DNA of 9,766 nt from a virus (IMGVR_UViG_2657244961_000006); one strand, 5' to 3'; shown: positions 1 through 9,766, counted from the first letter of the stretch. Translations and numbers: made by a program. Notes: generated from the letters alone by a model not told the origin.

Positions 1-1239
1 ATGGGCAGCGCAATTCATAGACTTAGCGATACTTTTTTACGAAAATTAAGCGGATCACCAGCCACAAAAAACGCCTTTTTTAATGACGGTGGCAATCTTA
101 GCGTAAGACATTCCACCAGCGGCCTTTTAACCTGGTATTTCACTTACAGGGCCGGAACTGGTAGGCAGGTATCACCTGAACGTCTGAGGCTGGGCAATTA
201 TCCCGATCTGAGCCTGAAAGCAGCCAGGGAAAAAGCGGCACAGTGTCGCGCCTGGCTGGCGGAGGGGAAAAATCCACGCCATGAGCTTAATCACACAGTG
301 CAGGAAGCGTTATCACCTGTGACGGTTAAGGAAGCGCTCACTTACTGGCTTGAGTCGTATGCGAAGGAAAAGCGCACAGACTACGAATCTCTGAAGAGCC
401 GGATCAATAAACACATAATCAGCCAGATTGGCGCTATGCCGCTGGAGAAATGCGAGCTACGGCACTGGCTGGCCTGTTTTGATCAGATGGCAAAGCTAAG
501 CCCTGTATCTGCCGGATTTTTGCTACAGGTATGCAAGCAGGCGCTTAAATACTGCCGCAAACGTCGCTACGCAATCAGCAACGTTCTTGATGATATGGTT
601 GTCGGTGATGTGGGAAAAAAAGCAGAAGTGAGCGAGCGCGTACTAACAAACAAGGAGCTTGGGGAATTACTCCGCGCCCTGGATGACAAAATATTCCCGC
701 CGTACTACAGCGCCCTGATTCGCCTCCTGATTGTTTTTGGATGCCGTACCACTGAGCTAAGACGCTCTGAGGTGCAGGAGTGGGATTTTAAGGAAATGCT
801 CTGGACAGTGCCGAAGGAGCACAGCAAAACGAAGGTCGCCATATTCAGGCCAATACCGGAAAGCATTTTGCCGTTCGTCACGCAGCTGGTGGAGCAGAAC
901 CGACGCACGGGTTTATTGCTTGGTGAACTGAAAGGGCAATCTTCGGTAGCAGAGTACGGAAGAACAGCGCACAGGCGCATTAATCAAGCCCCCTGGTCGT
1001 TGCATGACATCCGGCACACATTTACAACCATGCTGAACGATTTAGGCGTGGATCCGCATATTGTCGAGCAGCTTACAGCCCACCAGATGCCAGGGATGCA
1101 ACGAGTCTATAACCACTCCCGCTATCTTGATGCAAAACGTGATGCTCTTAACCTATGGGTAGACCGTCTCGAGCTTCTCCAGAACAATGATGAAAAAATC
1201 GTTGTTATGACCCCGCGAATTTACCACCAAAATTCTTGA
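1..1239 (+). CDS. int: Tyrosine recombinase, P4-type integrase (412 aa)
   Basis: ORF 1-1239. N-terminal arm-binding-like region typical of P4-family integrases, and C-terminal catalytic motifs: R in TTELRRSE, H-x-x-R in HDIRHTF, Y in VYNHSRY. Starts at window position 1, so the true N-terminus could lie upstream. Confidence 0.9.
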   Translation: MGSAIHRLSDTFLRKLSGSPATKNAFFNDGGNLSVRHSTSGLLTWYFTYRAGTGRQVSPERLRLGNYPDLSLKAAREKAAQCRAWLAEGKNPRHELNHTVQEALSPVTVKEALTYWLESYAKEKRTDYESLKSRINKHIISQIGAMPLEKCELRHWLACFDQMAKLSPVSAGFLLQVCKQALKYCRKRRYAISNVLDDMVVGDVGKKAEVSERVLTNKELGELLRALDDKIFPPYYSALIRLLIVFGCRTTELRRSEVQEWDFKEMLWTVPKEHSKTKVAIFRPIPESILPFVTQLVEQNRRTGLLLGELKGQSSVAEYGRTAHRRINQAPWSLHDIRHTFTTMLNDLGVDPHIVEQLTAHQMPGMQRVYNHSRYLDAKRDALNLWVDRLELLQNNDEKIVVMTPRIYHQNS

Positions 1240-1320: not shown

Positions 1321-1656
1321 GCTTTACATATATCAACCATCAAAAAATTGGAATGTCTTCTTCTGAACTTTTATTCTCTGTTTCTTGATTGTTCCAACAC
1401 TTGATGGTTTATCTATTTGTTTTTAATGAGATAATTCAAGCGTAATGACAAATGACGACATTTTTTGTTGCGTCTCTGAAAAACTCGTGACACGATTTTA
1501 AACACTGACGAGCTTCTACGAACCTTAGCGAACATAGCTTTTGGCAAGGTTGTGTCTTTAATCTAAGAGGTGAAAAAGAATCTAAGTAATATCCGATCTC
1601 ATATATCTACAGCTAAGAGAAAAGTTTATATACGTAATTTTTATGTAGGTTTTTGT

Positions 1657-1866
1657 ATGCGTGAAATAAATGAAGATCGCGTAATCCGTGAGGATGAATG
1701 TCGTAAGTTAACTGGAGTGTGTCGTACTACACGCTACGAACTGGAGAAAAAAGGGAGCTTTCCGTCTCGCCGTAATCTTGGTGGGCGTTCTGTAGGTTGG
1801 CTGCTGTCCGAGGTTATGGAATGGGTTAAAAGCCGGGATCGCATTAATTCAGGTAAGGCAGCGTAA
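1657..1866 (+). CDS. alpA: AlpA-family transcriptional regulator / excisionase-like protein (69 aa)
   Basis: In-frame ATG at 1657 inside ORF 1570-1866. Product MREINEDRVIREDECRKLTGVCRTTRYELEKKGSFPSRRNLGGRSVGWLLSEVMEWV has the AlpA/MerR-like HTH pattern (helix, GGR-x-VGW, E-x-x-EW). Size matches AlpA (~70 aa); the GTG at 1570 would give an atypical 98-aa form. Confidence 0.8.
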   Translation: MREINEDRVIREDECRKLTGVCRTTRYELEKKGSFPSRRNLGGRSVGWLLSEVMEWVKSRDRINSGKAA

Positions 1867-3224: not shown

Positions 3225-3524
3225 ATGAGAACGTATTTATCTGGCTTGACTGCCAGCGGTTATGCACATCCCAAAATTATCCCCGGCGCTATTTATCGGG
3301 ATAAGAACGGCAACAGAGTAACAGTAAAATCGATAATGTTTGACCGTGTGTACTTTATTCGTGATGGCTATTCATTTCATAGCTCGCTGAACGTGGAGAT
3401 CTTTATTTGCAGATTCCGGCGGGAAATCCCGCCTTCCAGAAATAACCATGTGTCACGTGTGGATGTGGATAAAAAACTACAGGAACTGAAAAACATGATT
3501 GCCGCGTGGAGAGAGCAGAAATGA
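3225..3524 (+). CDS. Hypothetical protein (99 aa), translationally coupled to the primase
   Basis: ORF 3225-3524 with a GGGGA SD upstream; its stop (TGA 3522-3524) overlaps the primase start (ATG 3521-3523) in an ATGA arrangement. Confidence 0.55.
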   Translation: MRTYLSGLTASGYAHPKIIPGAIYRDKNGNRVTVKSIMFDRVYFIRDGYSFHSSLNVEIFICRFRREIPPSRNNHVSRVDVDKKLQELKNMIAAWREQK

Positions 3525-5338
3525 AAAAAGCGCCAAATTTAAAACACCAACCGCGTGACAAAATGACGGAAGTCATCATTTTTGCGGGTAGTGATGCGTG
3601 GGCACATGCGAAGCAGTGGCAGGAACAGGACGGGCGACTGGCTGGCGATAACGTGCCACCTGTCTGGCTTGGAGAGCAACAACTTGCCGAACTGGACAAC
3701 CTGCAAATCGTACCGGACGGACGCTATCGCGTGCGTCTCTACCAGGCGGGGTTATTGCGTCCGGGGCTTGTTAATACCATCGGGCAGAAACTGGCAGCGG
3801 CAGGTGTCAGGGATGCTGATTATTACCCTGAAGGAATGCACAGCCAGAAACGGGAGAACTGGCGCGAATATCTGGAACGTGAACGGGCAGAGCAGGCGGA
3901 AAAGAAAAAGGTAGTTGAACTGCCTGTAAAGAAAAAAGAGCGGGTAAAAGACGATAACGCTTCATCACTGGCGCTTAACCAGATGGGAGCAAGTCAACGC
4001 GGCGAAGTTCTCCTGGCACATTATGGCGGTGAACTGGCGATTCATGCTGACTCTGACACTGTTCACCATTACAACGGCGTTGTATGGGAGCCAGTACAGG
4101 ATAAAGAATTACAGCGAGCTATGGCACAGATTTTCATTGATGCGGAGATCAGCTATTCGCAGAACGCCATTAAATCGGCGGTCGATACCATGAAGTTAAG
4201 TTTGCCTGTAATGGGGAATACAGCCCGTAACCTGATTGGATTCAGTAACGGGGTATTTGATACCAGAACAGGTAATTTTCGGGAGCATAACAAAAACGAC
4301 TGGTTGTTAATTGCCAGTGAATTACCTTTCAGCCCACCAGCAGAGGGGGAAACGCTGGCAACACATGCGCCGAATTTCTGGAAGTGGTTACGCCGTTCGG
4401 TGGCTGAGAATGACCGCAAGGCGGATCGCGTACTGGCTGCATTATTCATGGTGCTGGCGAACCGGTACGACTGGCAGTTATTCATTGAGGTAACAGGTCC
4501 AGGGGGAAGTGGTAAAAGCGTGATGGCGGAGATTTGCACCATGCTGGCGGGTAAGGCCAACACAGTATCGGCAAGCATGAAGGCGCTGGAAGATGCAAGG
4601 GAACGCGCGTTAGTGGTTGGCTTTTCGCTGATTATCATGCCGGATATGACCCGCTACGCTGGTGATGGGGCAGGAATTAAGGCCATTACAGGCGGTGACA
4701 AGGTGGCAATTGACCCGAAACACAAAGCCCCCTACTCAACGCGTATTCCGGCAGTAGTGCTGGCGGTTAACAATAACGCCATGTCATTCAGTGACCGCAG
4801 CGGGGGGATCTCACGTCGTCGGGTGATATTCAATTTTTCGGAAGTTGTACCGGAGAACGAACGCGATCCAATGCTGGCGGAAAAAATAGAAGGTGAGCTG
4901 GCGGTAGTGATTCGCCATCTGCTTACACGGTTTGCTGACCAGGACGAAGCCAGACGCCTGTTATATGAGCAGCAGAAATCTGAAGAAGCACTGGCGATAA
5001 AGCGAGAGGGGGATTCGCTGGTGGACTTCTGCGGCTATCTCATGGCGTCGGTAATGTGTGATGGCCTGTTAGTGGGTAATGCTGAAATTGTGCCATTCAG
5101 CCCACGCAGGTATCTCTATCATGCCTATCTGGCTTATATGAGGGCACATGGGTTTGGTAAACCTGTAACACTGACGCGCTTCGGTAAAGATATGCCGGGG
5201 GCAATGGCGGAATATGGCAGGGAGTATATGAAACGGAAAACGAAGCACGGTTTGCGTTCAAACGTGACACTGACGGAGGAATCAGAAGACTGGATGCCAT
5301 CATGTGTATCGGTCACTAATGACGATAGCAAAAATTAA
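3521..5338 (+). CDS. P4-family phage/plasmid primase with SF3-type helicase domain (605 aa)
   Basis: ATG at 3521 (GGAGAG SD 8 nt upstream) inside ORF 3506-5338. Walker A GPGGSGKS, Walker B-like VVGFSLIIMPD, D5-N / primase C-terminal-like central region. Immediately followed by the cognate-looking iteron array. Confidence 0.85.
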   Translation: MKKAPNLKHQPRDKMTEVIIFAGSDAWAHAKQWQEQDGRLAGDNVPPVWLGEQQLAELDNLQIVPDGRYRVRLYQAGLLRPGLVNTIGQKLAAAGVRDADYYPEGMHSQKRENWREYLERERAEQAEKKKVVELPVKKKERVKDDNASSLALNQMGASQRGEVLLAHYGGELAIHADSDTVHHYNGVVWEPVQDKELQRAMAQIFIDAEISYSQNAIKSAVDTMKLSLPVMGNTARNLIGFSNGVFDTRTGNFREHNKNDWLLIASELPFSPPAEGETLATHAPNFWKWLRRSVAENDRKADRVLAALFMVLANRYDWQLFIEVTGPGGSGKSVMAEICTMLAGKANTVSASMKALEDARERALVVGFSLIIMPDMTRYAGDGAGIKAITGGDKVAIDPKHKAPYSTRIPAVVLAVNNNAMSFSDRSGGISRRRVIFNFSEVVPENERDPMLAEKIEGELAVVIRHLLTRFADQDEARRLLYEQQKSEEALAIKREGDSLVDFCGYLMASVMCDGLLVGNAEIVPFSPRRYLYHAYLAYMRAHGFGKPVTLTRFGKDMPGAMAEYGREYMKRKTKHGLRSNVTLTEESEDWMPSCVSVTNDDSKN

Positions 5339-5352
5339 ACTTATGGAATAAC

Positions 5353-5581
5353 TGTTCACCACTGTTCACCCTGTCATAAATATCTTTTATATCAGTATAT
5401 TATAGGGTGAACAGTTATTTATGAACTGTTCACCAAACTATTCACTGTTCACCTTTTTGATTGTTTATTGAGCTTCAAGGGTGAACAGTGGTGAACAGTT
5501 GGTGAATAGTTTTTGTGAAACTGTTCACCCCTTAACATTATGAATTAAAAGAGAAAATATCAAAAGGTGAACAGGTGAAGG
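5353..5581. repeat. Replication-origin-like iteron array: about 9 perfect copies of TGTTCACC / GGTGAACA in both orientations plus degenerate copies, interspersed with AT-rich DNA
   Basis: Direct copies at 5353, 5363, 5427, 5446, 5522; inverted copies at 5406, 5480, 5490, 5566; degenerate ggtgaata at 5501. The octamer TGTTCACC matches, from memory, the type I iterons bound by P4 alpha protein at ori/crr. Confidence 0.8.
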
Positions 5582-5723
5582 GTTAAAACGCAAAAATTTT
5601 AATTTACTGCTGTGAGATAAAGCCTATGACAGCGAAGCACACCAAAACAACAGGCGGGGAATGATGATCCGTACGGGGATAACATACCGTTTTAAGCAAC
5701 GAGTAACAGAAGCCGGAGCAATC

Positions 5724-5804
5724 CGCCTTTTTTATGGGTCCTCCCGGTGGAGTGGTCTGCCACGGGGCGGGAGCGTCGCGGAAAAAGGCTGGTTTTTGCA
5801 TTTT
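5724..5804 (+). other. cos-like site A: ~80-bp element resembling the lambda cosQ-cosN junction, with candidate cohesive-end 12-mer GGGCGGGAGCGT (5765-5776)
   Basis: Ungapped match to the remembered lambda right-end/left-end junction (gggtcctttccggtg...acg GGGCGGCGACCT cgcggg). Here gggtcctcccggtgg...cacg GGGCGGGAGCGT cgcgg, conserving the flanks and 8 of 12 positions of the 12-mer. About 90 percent identical to element B. Confidence 0.6.
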
Positions 5805-5853
5805 CATGGCGGCGGCAGCATGTGTGATAATTTATTGATAATTAAAAGTTATT

Positions 5854-5951
5854 TCTGTTTTCACCTGTACAATATTTTTTTCTCCCTGTCATTAGACCAG
5901 TTTGCAATTAATTGAAATATATAAATAAATCTGTTTTTCACCTGCCAGGTG
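5854..5951 (+). repeat. Two direct repeats tctgtttt(t)cacctg (5854-5867, 5930-5944) plus palindrome CACCTGcCAGGTG (5939-5951) downstream of cos-like site A; candidate cosB-like terminase-binding sites
   Basis: Read directly. They loosely recall the lambda cosB R-site region (ctgtttttgtccgtgg, from memory). Confidence 0.4.
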
Positions 5952-5993
5952 GAGTTGCCTGTGTCAAAACGTGTTCAGATGGCGGGATATTTA

Positions 5994-6017
5994 TGCCGGA
6001 TTTTCTCCGGCTTTTTT
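5994..6017 (+). terminator. Rho-independent terminator (gccgga-ttttc-tccggc followed by TTTTTTGTG)
   Basis: 6-bp GC stem, 5-nt loop and T-run read directly. Sits between cos-like site A and the 6120 gene. Confidence 0.65.
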
Positions 6018-6119
6018 GTGTCTGAATCTCATTAATCTATTTTTATGATAGAAATATGTTTATCTACCACTTTTATCGATCAATAATGTGCACAGTTTAG
6101 TCAGTAAGAGGAAGTTACT

Positions 6120-6326
6120 GTGAGTTGTATTAATGACCTGAACACGGGCGATATCAGGGGTGGTTCCGTTCATCTGGATGCGCAGACCGTTATGCGCCTT
6201 AAGCAGTACAGGATCGACCATATAAATCATCATCCTGACAAACCATTACCAGGTGTGGCGCAGATTGTCAGACATGCCGTAAACACCTGGCTTAATCAGA
6301 ATGGTTTTGCATCGGTGGGGGAATAA
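6120..6326 (+). CDS. Small putative RHH-like DNA-binding protein (68 aa, GTG start), translationally coupled to the downstream protease/capsid-like gene
   Basis: Strong SD AAGAGGAAG (6105-6113) about 6 nt before GTG 6120; stop TAA overlaps the next ATG (TAATG at 6324-6328). Product contains a beta-strand-like GGSVHLDAQTV followed by helical segments. Confidence 0.5.
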   Translation: MSCINDLNTGDIRGGSVHLDAQTVMRLKQYRIDHINHHPDKPLPGVAQIVRHAVNTWLNQNGFASVGE

Positions 6327-8239
6327 TGAATCGCTGGTACACCATTAAGGCGGCGGATGTTCGTGGAGCGGCGGATATATCTATCTATGAGGAGATTGGC
6401 GGCTTCGGTGTTACTGCAAAGCAGTTCGCGGAAGACCTGAAAGCCCTTGGCGATGTTTCACATATCAATCTGAGGATCCATTCACCAGGTGGTGATGTGT
6501 TTGAAGGCATCGCCATCTATAACCTGCTACGGAATCATCCGGCAGACATTACGGTTTATATCGATGGTGTTGCGGCTTCAATGGCTTCGGTGGTCGCAAT
6601 GGCTGGCGATCGTGTTGTGATGCCGGAAAACGCCATGATGATGATACATAAGCCGTGGGGTATCTCTGGCGGAAATGCTGGTGATATGCGTGATTATGCT
6701 GATTTGCTGGATAAGGTGGAAACCGTGTTAGTCCCTGCTTATGCCAGAAAAACGGGCAAATCAGCACAGGAAATTACCGCCATGCTGGAAGATGAAACCT
6801 GGATGGACGGGAAAGAATGCCTTAAGCACGGTTTTGCTGATGAATTGTTGCCATCCGTCAGAGCAATGGCGCGAATTGAATCGAAGCGCACAGGAGATTT
6901 TTTACATATGCCGGAAACCATTAAAGGAATGATTACACCGCCACAGGGAGCGGCAAATATTGCTGGTAATGAACAGAAACGCATCAATGGAATAAGTGAA
7001 GTGTTTAGCCTGTTCGGCAGTCGTTACGACGGGATCAAAATGGCGTGTCTGGAAGATGCATCATGTACACCGGAAATGGCCCGTGAAAAGCTGTTGAACG
7101 AGCTGGGGCGCGAGTCCACGCCATCCAATAAAAATACCCCGCCTCATATCTATGCCGGAAACGGAAACATAACAGGTGATGCAATTCGTCAGGGGCTTTA
7201 TTCCCGTCTTGGGTATGAACGCCCTGAACGAGGCAACCCTTACGCGATGATGAGCCTTTTTGAAATGGCCCAGGCATCACTGGTTGATCGTGGTATCACT
7301 GTGAGTGGTTTTATTAATCGCTCGCAGGTTGTTAATGCGGCTTTTACACACAGCAGCAGTGATTTTTCTCATATTCTGGCTGGTGGGGCTGAAAAATCTG
7401 TACTGAAAGGCTGGCAGGACAGCGGCGAAACGTTCCAGAAATGGACGCGTACCGGTTCGCTTTCAAACTTTCATGAAGCAAAGCGCGTTGGTCTGAATGG
7501 TTTTTCAAAGCTGGATAAAGTACCGGAAGGTGCGGAATATAAATACATCACCACCAGCGATAAAGGTGTACCTATTGCGCTGGCCACGTACGGGAATATT
7601 TTTTCCGTTACCCGTCAGGCCATTATCAACGATGACCTGACCCAGTTAACTACAATCCCCATGGCGATGGGACGCGCAGCCGCCAGAACAGTTGGCAATC
7701 TGGTTTATCTCCTGTTAACCAGCAACGGCAAGTTTACGGATGGTAAAGCGTTATTCCATGCCGATCATAAAAATCTTATTGCGAAGGATATGGACATGGT
7801 GGGGCTTGATGAAGCCCGTAAGCTGATGCGCCTCCAGGAGGATGCTAACGGCGACTCACTGAATATTACCCCTGCTTTTGTTCTGGTCCCTGCCGCGCTG
7901 GAATCTGCCGCGCGTCGCGCCATTCTGTCATCGTCATCAGTCTTTCCGGTTGGTGATGAGGGCACTATCAATCAGAACCCCGGCATCATTAACGTTGTGA
8001 AAGATATGGCAGAAGTAATTGTTGAGCCACGTCTTGATAAGGCCAATAGCAAGGAATGGTATGTAGCCGCAGCTAAGGGGATGGACACAATAGAAGTCGC
8101 TTATCTTGATGGTATGGATACGCCATATCTTGAGGAGCAGGTGGGCTTTACTGTTGATGGTGTCGCCTGGAAGGTGCGCATAGATGCAGGTGTCGCGGCC
8201 CTCGATTATCGTGGATTGCTGAAATCGAATGGAGCATGA
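6326..8239 (+). CDS. Fusion protein (637 aa): N-terminal ClpP-like (S14) prohead-protease domain plus large C-terminal domain, possibly an HK97-fold major capsid-like domain
   Basis: ORF 6326-8239. Residues ~20-190 show the ClpP signature (GDVFEGIAIYN, GVAASMASVVAMAGD with the candidate catalytic Ser, MMMIHKPWG with the candidate His, later acidic residues). The C-terminal ~430 aa are long enough for a scaffold plus capsid domain; the capsid assignment is from general resemblance only. Confidence 0.8.
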   Translation: MNRWYTIKAADVRGAADISIYEEIGGFGVTAKQFAEDLKALGDVSHINLRIHSPGGDVFEGIAIYNLLRNHPADITVYIDGVAASMASVVAMAGDRVVMPENAMMMIHKPWGISGGNAGDMRDYADLLDKVETVLVPAYARKTGKSAQEITAMLEDETWMDGKECLKHGFADELLPSVRAMARIESKRTGDFLHMPETIKGMITPPQGAANIAGNEQKRINGISEVFSLFGSRYDGIKMACLEDASCTPEMAREKLLNELGRESTPSNKNTPPHIYAGNGNITGDAIRQGLYSRLGYERPERGNPYAMMSLFEMAQASLVDRGITVSGFINRSQVVNAAFTHSSSDFSHILAGGAEKSVLKGWQDSGETFQKWTRTGSLSNFHEAKRVGLNGFSKLDKVPEGAEYKYITTSDKGVPIALATYGNIFSVTRQAIINDDLTQLTTIPMAMGRAAARTVGNLVYLLLTSNGKFTDGKALFHADHKNLIAKDMDMVGLDEARKLMRLQEDANGDSLNITPAFVLVPAALESAARRAILSSSSVFPVGDEGTINQNPGIINVVKDMAEVIVEPRLDKANSKEWYVAAAKGMDTIEVAYLDGMDTPYLEEQVGFTVDGVAWKVRIDAGVAALDYRGLLKSNGA

Positions 8240-8267
8240 CAACAAGGCGGTACTTTGAACACGTGGG

Positions 8268-8431
8268 GCGGCGAGCTGCCGCACCATATTCCTGAACAAC
8301 TGAGCAAACGAGAGAGGTATACCGACAAATGGCAGCGACGCACACACTCCCTCTGGCGTCACCGGGCATGGCACGCATCTGCCTTTACGGGGATTTACAA
8401 CGATTTGGCCGCCGCATCGATCTTCATGTGA
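8268..8431 (+). pseudogene. Start-less 3' remnant of a lambdoid tail-tip assembly protein K-like gene, overlapping the start of the I-like gene
   Basis: The frame is open from 8240 to the TGA at 8429-8431 with no start codon, encoding ...GELPHHIPEQLSKRERYTDKWQRRTHSLWRHRAWHASAFTGIYNDLAAASIFM. This resembles the C-terminus of lambda K as I recall it, and in lambda K overlaps I in the same way. Confidence 0.5.
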
Positions 8432-8970
8432 AAACGGGGGCCGAAGCCATCCGGGCGCTGGCCATGCAGATCCCAGCGTTTCGTCAGAAACTGAGCGATG
8501 GTTGGTATCAGGTGCGTATTGCCGGGCGTGATACAGGCGAAAACGAATTATCAGCCCGTCTTAATGAACCGCTGGAAAATGGTGCCGTGATCCACATCGT
8601 ACCGCGTCTGGCTGGTGCCAAAAGTGGCGGCGTGTTTCAGGCGGTGCTTGGTGCGGCGCTGATTGCTACGGCAATCTGGATGCCAGGAATCAGTATCGCT
8701 TTCAGTGACATTCTCTTTTCAATGGGGGCGGCGATGACACTTGGTGGTGTTGCACAGATGCTGGCACCGAAAGCCAGCACAGCAACAGCCAGCACCACGG
8801 ATAACGGTAAGCAGAACACCTATTTCTCCTCTCTGGATAACATGGTTGCCCAGGGCAATGTTATGCCTGTTCTGTACGGTGAAATGCGCGTCGGGTCGCG
8901 GGTGATTTCGCAAGAGATCAGCACAGCAGATGAAGGGGATGGCGGCCAGATTGTGGTGATTGGTCGCTGA
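8329..8970 (+). CDS. Lambdoid tail-tip assembly protein I homologue (213 aa)
   Basis: ORF 8329-8970. N-terminus MAATHTLPLASPGMARICLYGDLQRFGRRIDL... and C-terminus ...DNGKQNTYFSSLDNMVAQGNVMPVLYGEMRVGSRVISQEISTADEGDGGQIVVIGR closely match my recollection of phage lambda gpI. The central hydrophobic segment is shorter than in lambda. Confidence 0.8.
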   Translation: MAATHTLPLASPGMARICLYGDLQRFGRRIDLHVKTGAEAIRALAMQIPAFRQKLSDGWYQVRIAGRDTGENELSARLNEPLENGAVIHIVPRLAGAKSGGVFQAVLGAALIATAIWMPGISIAFSDILFSMGAAMTLGGVAQMLAPKASTATASTTDNGKQNTYFSSLDNMVAQGNVMPVLYGEMRVGSRVISQEISTADEGDGGQIVVIGR

Positions 8971-8987
8971 TACAAAACGTTTTATGT

Positions 8988-9010
8988 AAAACCGCCTGCG
9001 GGCGGTTTTG
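8988..9010 (+). terminator. Rho-independent terminator (aaaaccgcc-tgcg-ggcggtttt) after the I-like gene
   Basis: GC stem flanked by an A-run and a T-run, read directly. The same hairpin follows gene I in lambda, as far as I recall. Confidence 0.7.
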
Positions 9011-9041
9011 TCGCTCATGGAGCATAAACAATAGTGACAGT

Positions 9042-9124
9042 CGCCTTTTTTGGGTGGGTCCTCCCGGTGAGGTGGCCTGCCACGGGGCGGGAGCGGCGCG
9101 GAAAAAGGCTAGTTTTTGCATTTT
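9042..9124 (+). other. cos-like site B: second copy of the cosQ-cosN-like element, with candidate 12-mer GGGCGGGAGCGG (9085-9096), directly upstream of the Nu1-like gene
   Basis: About 90 percent identical to element A over ~80 bp. The downstream AT-rich DNA (ttcgtcat..., gtttttattt) resembles the lambda cosB/I-site region as remembered. The position relative to the small terminase gene mirrors lambda cos-Nu1. Confidence 0.65.
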
Positions 9125-9280
9125 TATTCGTCATCATCATCTTTCTATTATATTGAATTTTAAGTGTTTTTATTTTTGGTATGTTAATTTTGCTTATTTT
9201 GTGTTCAACATGCAGCGCGTTTTTTGACCTTTTTTAAAAGATATTTGCAAGATGCATTTTTAAAACATTCTGGAGCGGGT
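9125..9280 (+). promoter_or_regulatory. AT-rich cosB-like / promoter region upstream of terS
   Basis: A+T-rich 150 bp between cos-like site B and the terS start; contains ttcgtcat and gtttttattt motifs; no individual promoter elements called. Confidence 0.4.
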
Positions 9281-9766
9281 ATGGATCGGGAACTGAAAAA
9301 TCTGATGCTGAACATTAACCAGCTGGCGGCGATAGCGGGAATATGTCGCCAGACTGCGGCGGCAAGGCTGAAAAATATCCAGCCAGCCGGAGGACATGAC
9401 AAGCTGAAACTCTATCGGGTGACTGACATTCTGACCTGTTTTCTTGATCTTCCCGTTCCGGCATCACTGGAAGAAATGGAGCCACACGACCGTAAGGCCT
9501 GGTATCAGTCCGAACGTGAGCGCCTCAAGTTCGAACAGGAAACGGCGCAACTCATACCCGCCGATGATGTGCGAAAAGAGATGGCTATATGGGGAGAAAT
9601 CGTAAGCGAGGAACTGGAAAAACTCCCCAGTATTCTGGCACGTGATGTTGGGCTTAAACCGATGGCAGTAAACAGAGTGCAGTCAATTATTGACGATTTG
9701 TGTAATCAGATTATCAGCCGGATGGTAAAAAATGACGTAGTGAATGAGGTCGCAAAACAGGCATGA
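9281..9766 (+). CDS. terS: Nu1-like small terminase subunit / packaging-specificity protein (161 aa)
   Basis: ATG at 9281 (GGAG SD 6 nt upstream) inside ORF 9224-9766. N-terminal winged-HTH-like segment LNINQLAAIAGICRQTAAARLKN...LKLYRVTDIL parallels lambda Nu1 (VNKKQLADIFGASIRTIQNWQ...EVLYDSAAVIKWY, from memory), followed by a helical ERERLKFEQETAQL region. Confidence 0.7.
   Translation: MDRELKNLMLNINQLAAIAGICRQTAAARLKNIQPAGGHDKLKLYRVTDILTCFLDLPVPASLEEMEPHDRKAWYQSERERLKFEQETAQLIPADDVRKEMAIWGEIVSEELEKLPSILARDVGLKPMAVNRVQSIIDDLCNQIISRMVKNDVVNEVAKQA

Follow-up and report, generated by a model that had tools for sequence, protein, structure and literature searches.

The window analysed here is the whole 9,766-nucleotide stretch of the viral record IMGVR_UViG_2657244961_000006, and by its gene content it is assigned to a cos-type PICI of approximately 10.8 kb, a phage satellite of E. 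coli, of which it holds the greater part (Table 1). In a gene-order comparison the succession of integrase, AlpA, DUF4222, primase, iterons, capsid gene and TerS-like gene was that of EcCICFT073, and the island is placed in the same organisational family. The element has a terminal integrase gene, alpA, a primase-type gene with an adjacent origin, unidirectional genes and a specific attachment site, its size is within 10-15 kb, and it is without lysis, tail-shaft or terL genes. Iteron units GGTGAACAG and CTGTTCACC recur in direct and inverted arrays in the putative replication origin (repeat search of the window), and the origins of Gram-negative PICIs are located in the same position, 3' of the primase gene (PMC6092414). 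Membership of the cf-PICIs was rejected because the head and packaging genes amount to a protease-capsid fusion and a TerS-like gene, with neither terL nor portal annotated in the complete 10,790-bp island, which also has no scaffold gene of its own. Membership of the HE-PICIs was rejected because close relatives with the same integrase sit between cspD and clpS and not inside a prophage late gene; in relatives L002 and L003 the integrase gene adjoins cspD/yljB, and clpS flanks the island on the opposite side. A 10,790-bp circular record, assembled separately, exists for a relative of the island and is one hint of induction or replication by a helper.

Table 1 Features of the window, listed by position, and the evidence for each
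Feature	Coordinates	Strand	Evidence
Tyrosine integrase, left PICI end	1-1239	+	Pfam Phage_integrase, Arm-DNA-bind_3
AlpA-family regulator	1570-1866	+	Pfam Phage_AlpA, E=4.8e-16
Primase/D5-type helicase, replication initiator	3506-5338	+	Pfam D5_N, Pox_D5, DUF5906; EcCICFT073-like gene order
Iteron-rich region, putative replication origin	5337-5575		Directly 3' of the primase gene
Site A cosQ heptamer GGGTCCT	5736-5742	+	Same as lambda, Tritos and cdtI; starts 29 nt before the nick
Site A cosN, predicted 12-nt cohesive end GGGCGGGAGCGT	5765-5776	+	Tritos and cdtI records open with the same 12-mer
Site A putative cosB, helper class 1	5777-5968	+	Whole Tritos/cdtI-type cosN-to-terS leader and first 8 nt of terS
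Terminator-like hairpin and T-run closing the site A cassette	5995-6019	+	Terminator scan
68-aa ORF ahead of the capsid gene	6120-6326	+	Conserved in relatives
ClpP-like prohead protease/major capsid protein fusion	6326-8239	+	Pfam Phage_capsid_4, CLP_protease
Tail gene K remnant, 3' end only	8270-8431	+	Partial "phage tail protein" pseudogene annotation in L001 and L002
Tail assembly protein I homologue	8368-8970	+	Pfam Lambda_tail_I, E=4e-23; longest ORF from 8329
GC-rich hairpin and T-run after gene I, upstream of site B	8989-9012	+	AAAACCGCCTGCGGGCGGTTTTGT in sequence; RNAfold hairpin
Site B cosQ heptamer GGGTCCT	9056-9062	+	Alignment
Site B cosN, predicted 12-nt cohesive end GGGCGGGAGCGG	9085-9096	+	In register with site A and the phage ends
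Site B putative cosB, class 2-like; leader up to the island terS-like gene	9097-9280	+	Diverges from site A after about 9127
Island DUF1441 protein, 161 aa, small terminase homologue	9281-9766	+	Pfam DUF1441, E=3e-35

Two cos-like sites, designated A and B, bracket a block composed of a 68-aa ORF, a ClpP-protease/major-capsid fusion, the remnant of tail gene K and the gene of tail assembly protein I, and the description of this 3.3-kb block as morphogenesis and tail DNA in an earlier reading made from the sequence alone (the sequence-only reading) is thus borne out by the head and tail genes found. The 68-aa ORF has no Pfam match and no BLASTP similarity to the Tritos Ad1 protein or the CFT073 68-aa ORF. 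The capsid fusion is 57% identical to that of phage Tritos, and capsid proteins of close relatives are 92-100% identical. Lambdoid phages, cdtI and mEp460 among them, match window positions 8269-9025 with their K-I region at 86-88% identity; gene I is absent from L003 and most other relatives, in which the capsid gene abuts site B.

A repeat search found direct repeats of 80 nt at 5728-5807 and 9048-9127, 89% identical, on the same strand and 3320 nt apart, in agreement with the two elements of about 90% identity and direct orientation reported earlier. The repeat core (5736-5804 and 9056-9124) is 93% identical, a 69-nt degenerate pattern matches those two places only (0.00 chance matches in 200 shuffles), and the similarity stops to the right of about 5807/9127 and to the left of about 5724/9042. 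Each site consists of the cosQ heptamer GGGTCCT, a 29-nt spacer (measured from cosQ start to nick; 30 nt in lambda, NC_001416) and a 12-nt cosN that matches lambda at 8 of 12 positions, so that the gap-free alignment to the lambda cosQ-cosN junction proposed earlier does not hold. The architecture is lambda-like and the sequence class, going by these alignments, is that of Tritos and cdtI, not of lambda. The first base of the Tritos (OV696610) and cdtI (AB285204, NC_009514) records aligns with window position 5765, a placement of the nick that derives from record starts in two phage genomes and three database records (cdtI twice). With site B in register, the predicted cohesive ends would be GGGCGGGAGCGT at site A and GGGCGGGAGCGG at site B, at the termini foreseen in the sequence-only reading. 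The two ends differ at base 12, which is T at site A and G at site B, and an A-to-B or B-to-A product would therefore carry a terminal mismatch; among the aligned relatives, G occupies this base in every B site that has a Tritos-type cosN.

That the repeat might be a common intergenic element (a terminator or regulatory repeat) unrelated to packaging is suggested by the terminator-like T-run ahead of each copy and by the presence of the cos core in thousands of E. coli genomes, but in those genomes the copies immediately precede prophage terS genes, two phage genomes (three records) start exactly at the predicted nick, and the cosQ-spacer-cosN architecture is that of lambda, which together effectively refute it. 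Both sites are accordingly listed here as genuine lambdoid cos sites by homology to lambda, Tritos and cdtI, as had been claimed, with cosQ and cosN in common and differing cosB, and either would be expected to be cleaved. Individual R or IHF elements were not convincingly identified in cosB at either site, and the putative cosB segments are assigned by homology only.

The stretch of site A that runs from cosQ over cosN and cosB into the first 8 nt of terS has 94% identity to Tritos and cdtI, with window positions 5808-5968 being 94% identical to positions 44-204 of both phages, and the terS gene itself is missing after it. In over 1000 E. coli genomes a DUF1441 gene is immediately preceded by a segment 92-94% identical to window positions 5736-5968. 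The sequence upstream of site A cosQ is island-type, having the terminator T-run common to site B, and is not phage-type. The whole cassette measures about 285 bp (about 5735-6019), and the B-only islands L018 and L077 are without window positions of about 5737-6005 and have a single terminator left at the junction, which makes site A a discrete indel with a copy of the terminator tail on either side. By these comparisons it is best described as a helper-phage-derived copy, of about 285 bp, of a complete cosQ-cosN-cosB without terS. An imperfect direct repeat, TCTGTTTT(T)CACCTG, was seen by eye within site A cosB at 5854-5867 and 5930-5944 and is a candidate TerS-binding element.

The presence or absence of the two sites was read directly from related islands, as the sequence-only reading had proposed. 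Close relatives comprised 19 with both sites, 6 with B only and none with A only; site A is missing from 6 of 27 close relatives, a cos lies at the B position in every relative, and distant relatives have a single cos, at that position. In L034 and L035 the B module is swapped for a lambda-like cos and a Nu1-like TerS, and site A is kept. Site A cosQ is identical across the A-site rows of the alignment (two rows are displaced by 1 nt), cosN is intact at all A sites except those of L022 and L035, which have single substitutions, and cosB is 87-100% identical among islands. The earlier suggestion that one copy is a recombination scar from cargo capture is supported in part, site A being a discrete helper-derived cassette variably present among relatives. 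A neutral scar from a Tritos-class phage, not yet lost and leaving only site B to matter for transfer, would account for an indel between two terminator-tail copies that six close relatives do without, on an island where K-I is another obvious captured phage fragment; late-gene capture by PICIs is documented (PMC10111431). The kinship of the islands is also too close for conservation to prove selection, and the conservation of site A could reflect recent ancestry instead. Against a scar, cosQ and, with the two exceptions named, cosN have stayed intact, cosB is conserved to the degree given above, the boundaries of the cassette are very nearly those of a functional cos unit (the start of cosQ, 8 nt into terS, then a terminator), the islands that bear it differ in integrase and integration site (at least three of each), and the cloned second cos sites of EcCICFT073 work (PMC6092414). 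On balance a neutral scar is considered unlikely.

To the right of site B, window positions 9128-9285 resemble, at 70-74% identity, the leader between cos and terS in prophages L013-L016, all of which encode TerS followed by TerL, and residues 1-150 of the DUF1441 protein are 68-71% identical to the TerS of these prophages. Only residues 66-140 match Tritos TerS, at 49% identity. The two TerS classes share only 42-43% identity, whereas TerL of L013-L016 is 81-87% identical to Tritos TerL, and because TerL is conserved to this degree across both classes one large terminase could plausibly serve both cosB classes. Site B cosB would be cognate with the island TerS-like protein, to judge from the parallel similarity of leader and protein. 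In an AF2 model (pLDDT 79) the N-terminus of the DUF1441 protein is beta-alpha-alpha-wing-alpha, a winged-HTH-like topology, and its best Foldseek matches, all weak (E>0.07), were MerR-type wHTH proteins and the 72-residue chain 6hn7_B, whose entry stems from the Rpp paper. Homology to Rpp (RppA/B/C) was rejected: RppC chains among PDB sequences gave no match to the protein at E<=1, a 32-sequence profile search for Rpp similarity gave none at E<=10, BLASTP against CFT073 RppA gave E=2.5 (no detectable similarity), and by Pfam the protein is a member of DUF1441, to which TerS of these phages belongs. Its position beside site B is analogous to that of Rpp, and it may work like Rpp without being a member of that family.

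The explanation that is favoured, with moderate confidence, is a PICI with two packaging modules, the island's own ancestral site B with its TerS-like gene and an add-on helper cos at site A, from which concatemers would be packaged. The TerS-like protein would bind site B cosB via its divergent N-terminal DNA-binding domain, and its C-terminal half, conserved with helper TerS, would recruit the helper large terminase. Site A would supply the complete cosQ-cosN-cosB of Tritos/cdtI-class helpers without terS, and because it is a full helper cos, unmodified helper terminase could start, and probably also finish, packaging of island concatemers. The comparisons establish how similar the two sites are in sequence, which phages they are related to and how their presence varies among relatives, and from these we infer cleavage at either site, the binding partners and the concatemers themselves; packaging would proceed rightwards from either site, and in helper-sized heads (46-47 kb) the internal cos would be skipped and about four island copies packaged (4 x 10.8 = 43.2 kb). 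Both cos sites of EcCICFT073 drive transfer, one of them needing an island protein that pairs with helper TerS, and the packaged DNA is phage-sized (PMC6092414, PMC6739421). Transfer of EcCICFT073 rose on deletion of its second cos (PMC6092414), and a second site thus need not be beneficial. It tells against the two-module explanation that six close relatives manage without site A.

The same six relatives weigh against site A being mainly a decoy, whose replicated copies would titrate helper terminase and hinder helper packaging with island transfer as a side effect. Interference with helper packaging is characteristic of PICIs (PMC6739421), and site A has the full helper cosB but no terS. Binding and cutting of a cos by terminase on a concatemer would normally lead to packaging, however, and the sequence offers nothing that tells a decoy from a productive packaging site, so that this role is regarded as improbable. 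Also unlikely is the earlier proposal that packaging runs from B to A, giving a 7.5-kb product without the capsid/tail block, or from A to B, giving the 3.3-kb block only. The two sites do have the same orientation and each has cosQ and cosN, which lambda requires for termination, and the island-encoded capsid protein could in principle build small heads. Lambda-type terminal cleavage, on the other hand, depends on head filling and is inefficient before the head is nearly full, and the island, which encodes neither portal nor scaffold nor TerL, does not qualify as a capsid-forming PICI. Each transfer of a B-to-A product would leave the capsid gene behind, yet all 27 close relatives in which both regions can be seen have kept it, as they could not have done had it been routinely excluded from the transferred DNA. 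EcCICFT073 is packaged at phage length, its internal cos is skipped and its capsid gene is dispensable (PMC6092414).

Two cos sites in one element had been treated in the sequence-only reading as an anomaly, but for a PICI, EcCICFT073, two functional sites, cos1/cos2 with RppA, had already been described (Fillol-Salom et al. 2018 ISME J, PMC6092414; 2019 Mol Cell, PMC6739421), and both papers cite two putative sites for the cos-type SaPIbov4. The phenomenon is known, and the variant features of the present island, as they appear from its sequence, are that its sites point the same way, that their cosB regions belong to two classes and that a TerS homologue stands where EcCICFT073 has Rpp. The two islands share int, alpA, DUF4222, primase, ori, a 68-aa ORF, capsid gene, packaging protein and a 93-aa ORF, two cosQ-cosN sites per island, TerL and virion that come, here putatively, from the helper, and one cos immediately upstream of the gene of the island packaging protein; in EcCICFT073 this protein has a winged-HTH domain and sets packaging specificity, and the present protein may have a domain and role of that kind. 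The EcCICFT073 sites are lambda-type (GGGCGGCGACCT), inverted and about 0.75 kb apart, flanking rppA, whereas those of the window are Tritos/cdtI-type (GGGCGGGAGCG[T/G]), direct and 3.3 kb apart, flanking the capsid block. According to its authors neither EcCICFT073 site has helper cosB, whereas site A has a complete one (94%), and the island protein here is a full-length DUF1441 TerS homologue with no detectable similarity to RppA/RppC.

Tritos, cdtI and mEp460-like phages share site A at 94% identity from cosQ up to where terS begins, and its 12-nt end also opens the Tritos and cdtI records; unlike in these phages, the island segment is not followed by terS-terL, being closed by a terminator, and is preceded by the island-type T-run. 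Among Gram-negative PICIs with captured helper late genes, 11capE and its relatives (Mageeney et al. 2023, PMC10111431) are comparable in that 11capE has a 258-bp segment 90% identical to the cos region of its helper. Relatives of the window island with other integrases are embedded, in an 11capE-like manner, in prophage terL or a prophage protease-capsid gene, and portal and capsid proteins of the host prophages are 99-100% identical to those of Tritos. The same-integrase close relatives differ from the 11capE arrangement described there in having a chromosomal location (cspD-clpS), and the passages of that paper that were searched describe one cos-like segment, not two. The SaPIs are Gram-positive and unrelated in sequence; pac-type SaPIs use their own small terminase to redirect the helper large terminase to satellite DNA, and the cos-type SaPIbov5 simply carries the cos of its helper, whereas the window island appears to combine its own TerS-like gene and its own cosB with a copy of the helper cos.

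Two 80-nt elements at 5728-5807 (site A) and 9048-9127 (site B) form one direct-repeat family in the window, with 89% identity and a separation of 3320 nt, and their core (5736-5804 versus 9056-9124) is 93% identical. A 69-nt degenerate pattern matched exactly these two sites, at a rate of 0.00 in 200 shuffles, and pairwise alignment showed the likeness to end at about 5807/9127 rightwards and about 5724/9042 leftwards. Both elements lie where the sequence-only reading had placed them. In a distant BLAST search of 50,697 phage records, site A matched 37 lambdoid phages, and window position 5765 corresponds to the aligned first base of the records of Tritos (OV696610) and cdtI (AB285204, NC_009514). 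The ends of lambda (NC_001416), Tritos and cdtI were aligned with both sites, and all have a common layout of cosQ (GGGTCCT), a spacer, CACG or TACG, a 12-mer beginning GGGCGG, and CGCGG. The 12-mer of site A, GGGCGGGAGCGT, is also that of Tritos and cdtI; site B has GGGCGGGAGCGG, and lambda has GGGCGGCGACCT, which agrees with site A at 8 of the 12 positions. The ends of A and B differ at base 12 in the window and are identical in other islands. The termini predicted earlier (5765/5776 and 9085/9096) are those implied by the phage record starts. The distance from the start of cosQ to the nick is 29 nt in both window sites and 30 nt in lambda, so the earlier claim of a gapless alignment to lambda was slightly wrong. 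With cosB recognised by homology, every sequence element of a lambdoid cos is present at both sites, and by this measure both are genuine cos sites; a search of the two cosB regions for R-like repeats gave no convincing individual elements.

The 8-nt cosQ-cosN spacer (5750-5757 and 9070-9077), which lies between CCCGGTG and CTGCCACG, is hypervariable among islands, the variants being GGAGTGGT, GTAGTGAC, GAGGTGGC and GGGGTGGT. In six islands (L021, L031, L032, L036, L037 and L047) the same variant occurs at A and B, which suggests gene conversion between the sites. A footprint of cos-to-cos joining, with the left half of A fused to the right half of B, was also considered; only patchy sharing of the 8-nt spacer was found and, since this suits gene conversion better, it was not counted as evidence for such joining.

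The gene order of the island is identical to that of the model Gram-negative PICI EcCICFT073, as located in the CFT073 genome, and its Pfam assignments are listed in the table. The window is matched over at least 80% of its length by 56 complete E. coli genomes. The element is flanked by cspD/yljB and clpS in PEC122 and A1_181, and in strain Z1323HEC0475 a separate 10,790-bp circular record (NZ_CP148328.1) is the full island at 97% identity. This record was deposited as a 'plasmid' and may represent the island in an excised, replicating state caught by assembly. Directly 3' of the primase gene (5337-5575), GGTGAACAG / CTGTTCACC iterons are densely arrayed, some direct and some inverted, and probably form the island replication origin. 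Neither terL nor a portal gene is found in the island, which is therefore not a capsid-forming PICI.

Features of the window assigned by Pfam
Feature	Position	Source
Integrase	1-1239	Pfam
AlpA	1570-1866	Pfam
DUF4222		Pfam
D5-type primase	3506-5338	Pfam
ClpP-protease/major-capsid fusion	6326-8239	Pfam
Lambda tail protein I homologue	8329-8970	Pfam
DUF1441	end at 9766	Pfam

Tritos and cdtI are 94% identical to site A from cosQ through the entire cosN-to-terS leader. The leader match (window 5808-5968 versus phage 44-204) stops 8 nt into the phage terS, and a terminator-like hairpin lies downstream of it at 5995-6019. The sequence 5' of the site A cosQ is not phage-like and contains an island-type terminator T-run common to site B. 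Exactly the segment 5736-5968 occurs, at 92-94% identity and directly upstream of a DUF1441 gene, in more than 1000 E. coli genomes, and these copies are the cos-terS junction of resident prophages. Comparison of islands having both sites with those having B only defines site A as a discrete indel of about 285 bp (about 5735-6019) between two terminator-tail copies, and the cassette was found in an island context in 155 of 5,426 complete E. coli genomes. The suggestion that one copy is a scar of cargo capture therefore holds insofar as one site is a captured helper cassette; the occurrence of two cos sites in such an element is itself already in the literature. Two ORFs, of 84 aa (5661-5915, plus strand) and 67 aa (5604-5807, minus strand), span site A, and in PEC122 the former carries a hypothetical-protein annotation (11660-11914 of the PEC122 locus). 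Its overlap with a cos that was copied from a non-coding phage leader makes this 84-aa ORF unlikely to be a gene. The start region of the phage terS persists as GTG-TCA-AAA and opens a 24-codon ORF (5961-6035), which is unrelated to TerS and passes through the terminator-like hairpin.

Site B, which is paired with an island TerS homologue, departs from site A about 40 nt past the nick. Its leader (9128-9285) has 70-74% identity to the cos-terS leader of prophages L013-L016, and residues 1-150 of the island DUF1441 protein (161 aa) are 68-71% identical to the TerS of the same prophages, whereas Tritos TerS matches the island protein in the C-terminal half only (residues 66-140, 49%). A contig scan with the island TerS returned five loci, all prophages and no islands, which were used as the class-2 reference. 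TerL of class 2 and Tritos are 81-87% identical, whereas TerS of class 1 (the Tritos/cdtI type) and class 2 (the L013-L016 type) are only 42-43% identical. These comparisons indicate two cosB/TerS specificity classes around a similar cosN and large terminase. On sequence grounds each class is represented by one cos in the island, whose TerS gene is class-2-like only. An AlphaFold model of the DUF1441 protein built on a 32-sequence alignment (pLDDT 79, versus 47 for the single-sequence model) has an N-terminal beta-alpha-alpha-wing-alpha unit, and the top Foldseek matches were MerR-type winged-HTH proteins and 6hn7_B, a 72-residue chain entered with the Rpp paper. Since all matches had E>0.07, the model is consistent with, and does not prove, a TerS-like DNA-binding domain. 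No sequence similarity was found between the island protein and RppA or RppC.

The number of sites in related islands was surveyed in 79 IMG/VR loci retrieved with the island capsid protein, in which markers and cos sites were scored; close relatives were those with a capsid protein at least 92% identical and both regions visible. Both sites in direct orientation were found in 19 close relatives and B only in 6, and none had A only. Two others (L034 and L035) have three cos sites (L034 6481-9962, L035 6877-10358): A is kept, the B position is occupied by a lambda-like cos (GGGCGGCAGACG, then CGCGGGTTTTCGCTATTTATGA) upstream of a Nu1-like TerS (L034 9181-9735) matching Pfam Phage_Nu1 in its C-terminal half only, and an inverted class-2-type cos lies downstream. 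Distant relatives (capsid 71-79% identical) typically have a single cos immediately 3' of the capsid gene. The B position is thus the standard cos location of the family, and L034 and L035 show that the cos/TerS module found there can be exchanged; site A is an optional extra. A divergent gpI homologue (28-40% identical) lies just after the cos of the distant relatives L044-L075.

Relatives whose integrases differ from that of the window (22-23% or 41% identity to its Int) sit inside prophage late genes, a helper-embedded configuration already published (PMC10111431). The insertion is in terL in L026, L032, L037 and L040, with TerL residues 1-310 encoded upstream of int and 303-677 downstream of the island, and in the protease-capsid gene in L043 and L046, where the prophage fusion is split at about residues 153-176. 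The portal and capsid of the host prophage of L032 and L037 are 99-100% identical to those of Tritos. L047 (740-14300) is a PICI within a PICI, in which an island with the 41% Int is inserted into the capsid gene region of a window-type island, leaving site A and the 68-aa ORF on the left and a truncated capsid gene, site B and the TerS-like gene on the right.

The capsid fusion that lies between the sites has 57% identity to its Tritos counterpart. A K' remnant and complete gene I (8269-9025) are 86-88% identical to the lambdoid K-I region, including that of cdtI; the segment separates the capsid gene from site B in a minority of relatives and is absent from most, in which the capsid gene abuts site B and the A-B spacing is therefore 2.5 kb rather than 3.3 kb. 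No relatives of the 68-aa ORF were detectable among the proteins tested. Derivation of the A-to-capsid block from a phage head operon by deletion was rejected, because this ORF resembles neither the Tritos Ad1 (gpW-position) protein nor the 68-aa ORF of CFT073.

Terminal cleavage in lambda depends on head filling. In EcCICFT073 the packaged DNA is phage-sized, so that internal cos sites are skipped (PMC6092414), and the capsid gene is kept in all 27 close relatives of the window island. For these three reasons the earlier proposal that packaging from B to A excludes the 3.3-kb block is unlikely. Site B and the island TerS probably constitute the island's own initiation module, in which the C-terminal half of TerS, conserved with helper TerS, would dock the helper TerL, on the model of lambda Nu1 and in line with the discussion in PMC6739421. 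Site A would give a terminase of the Tritos/cdtI class direct access to the island. Packaging would run rightwards from A and from B alike, reaching B 3.3 kb after A and A 7.5 kb after B in a 10.79-kb unit. Heads of 46-47-kb capacity would take four units (43.2 kb, 93% of Tritos), and with mixed site use they would have room for 39.9 kb or 46.5 kb as well. The joint reading, in which A serves Tritos/cdtI-class helpers, B with the island TerS serves other helpers, and either site terminates packaging as a finer length ruler, is speculative and as a whole rather improbable. If it were true, any Tritos/cdtI-class helper would package the island via A with its own TerS, and B with the TerS homologue would capture the TerL of helpers of other TerS specificity, widening the helper range. 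Cut points would then occur in the concatemer every 3.3 or 7.5 kb rather than every 10.8 kb, and the resulting ruler (e.g. 39.9, 43.2 and 46.5 kb) would let one island fill heads of differing capacity.

PICIs carry virulence, resistance and defence genes among enterobacteria at high frequency, and the phages able to move a PICI are set by how cos, TerS and TerL match one another. The authors of the EcCICFT073 work explicitly raised the question of why certain PICIs possess two cos sites. Compared with EcCICFT073, the present family offers the cleaner natural case, since homology links each site with a phage cosB/TerS class of its own. Naturally occurring islands have A and B, B alone, or a replaced B module, and the family, whose site A cassette occurs in an island context in 155 of 5,426 complete E. 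coli genomes, is common enough to make the two-cos question directly testable with existing strains.

EcCICFT073 has two cos sites, each of which, when cloned, permits transduction by lambda and phi80; deletion of cos1 lowers transfer, deletion of cos2 raises it and the double deletion abolishes it (PMC6092414). Two putative cos sites were noted in SaPIbov4 (PMC6092414), and RppA and helper TerS together recognise the cosB of EcCICFT073 cos1 (PMC6739421). PICIs embedded in prophage late genes have been described, including an embedded PICI that has a 258-bp cos-region segment in common with its helper at 90% identity (PMC10111431). Two-cos PICIs, this type of element and its helper-embedded relatives have all been described before, and the value of the present findings is incremental. 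The sites of EcCICFT073, as read in CFT073, are lambda-type, inverted and about 0.75 kb apart, flanking rppA, whereas those of the window island are direct and bracket the capsid gene; the incremental new points are this direct orientation, a separate cosB class for each site, and a genuine TerS homologue in place of Rpp.
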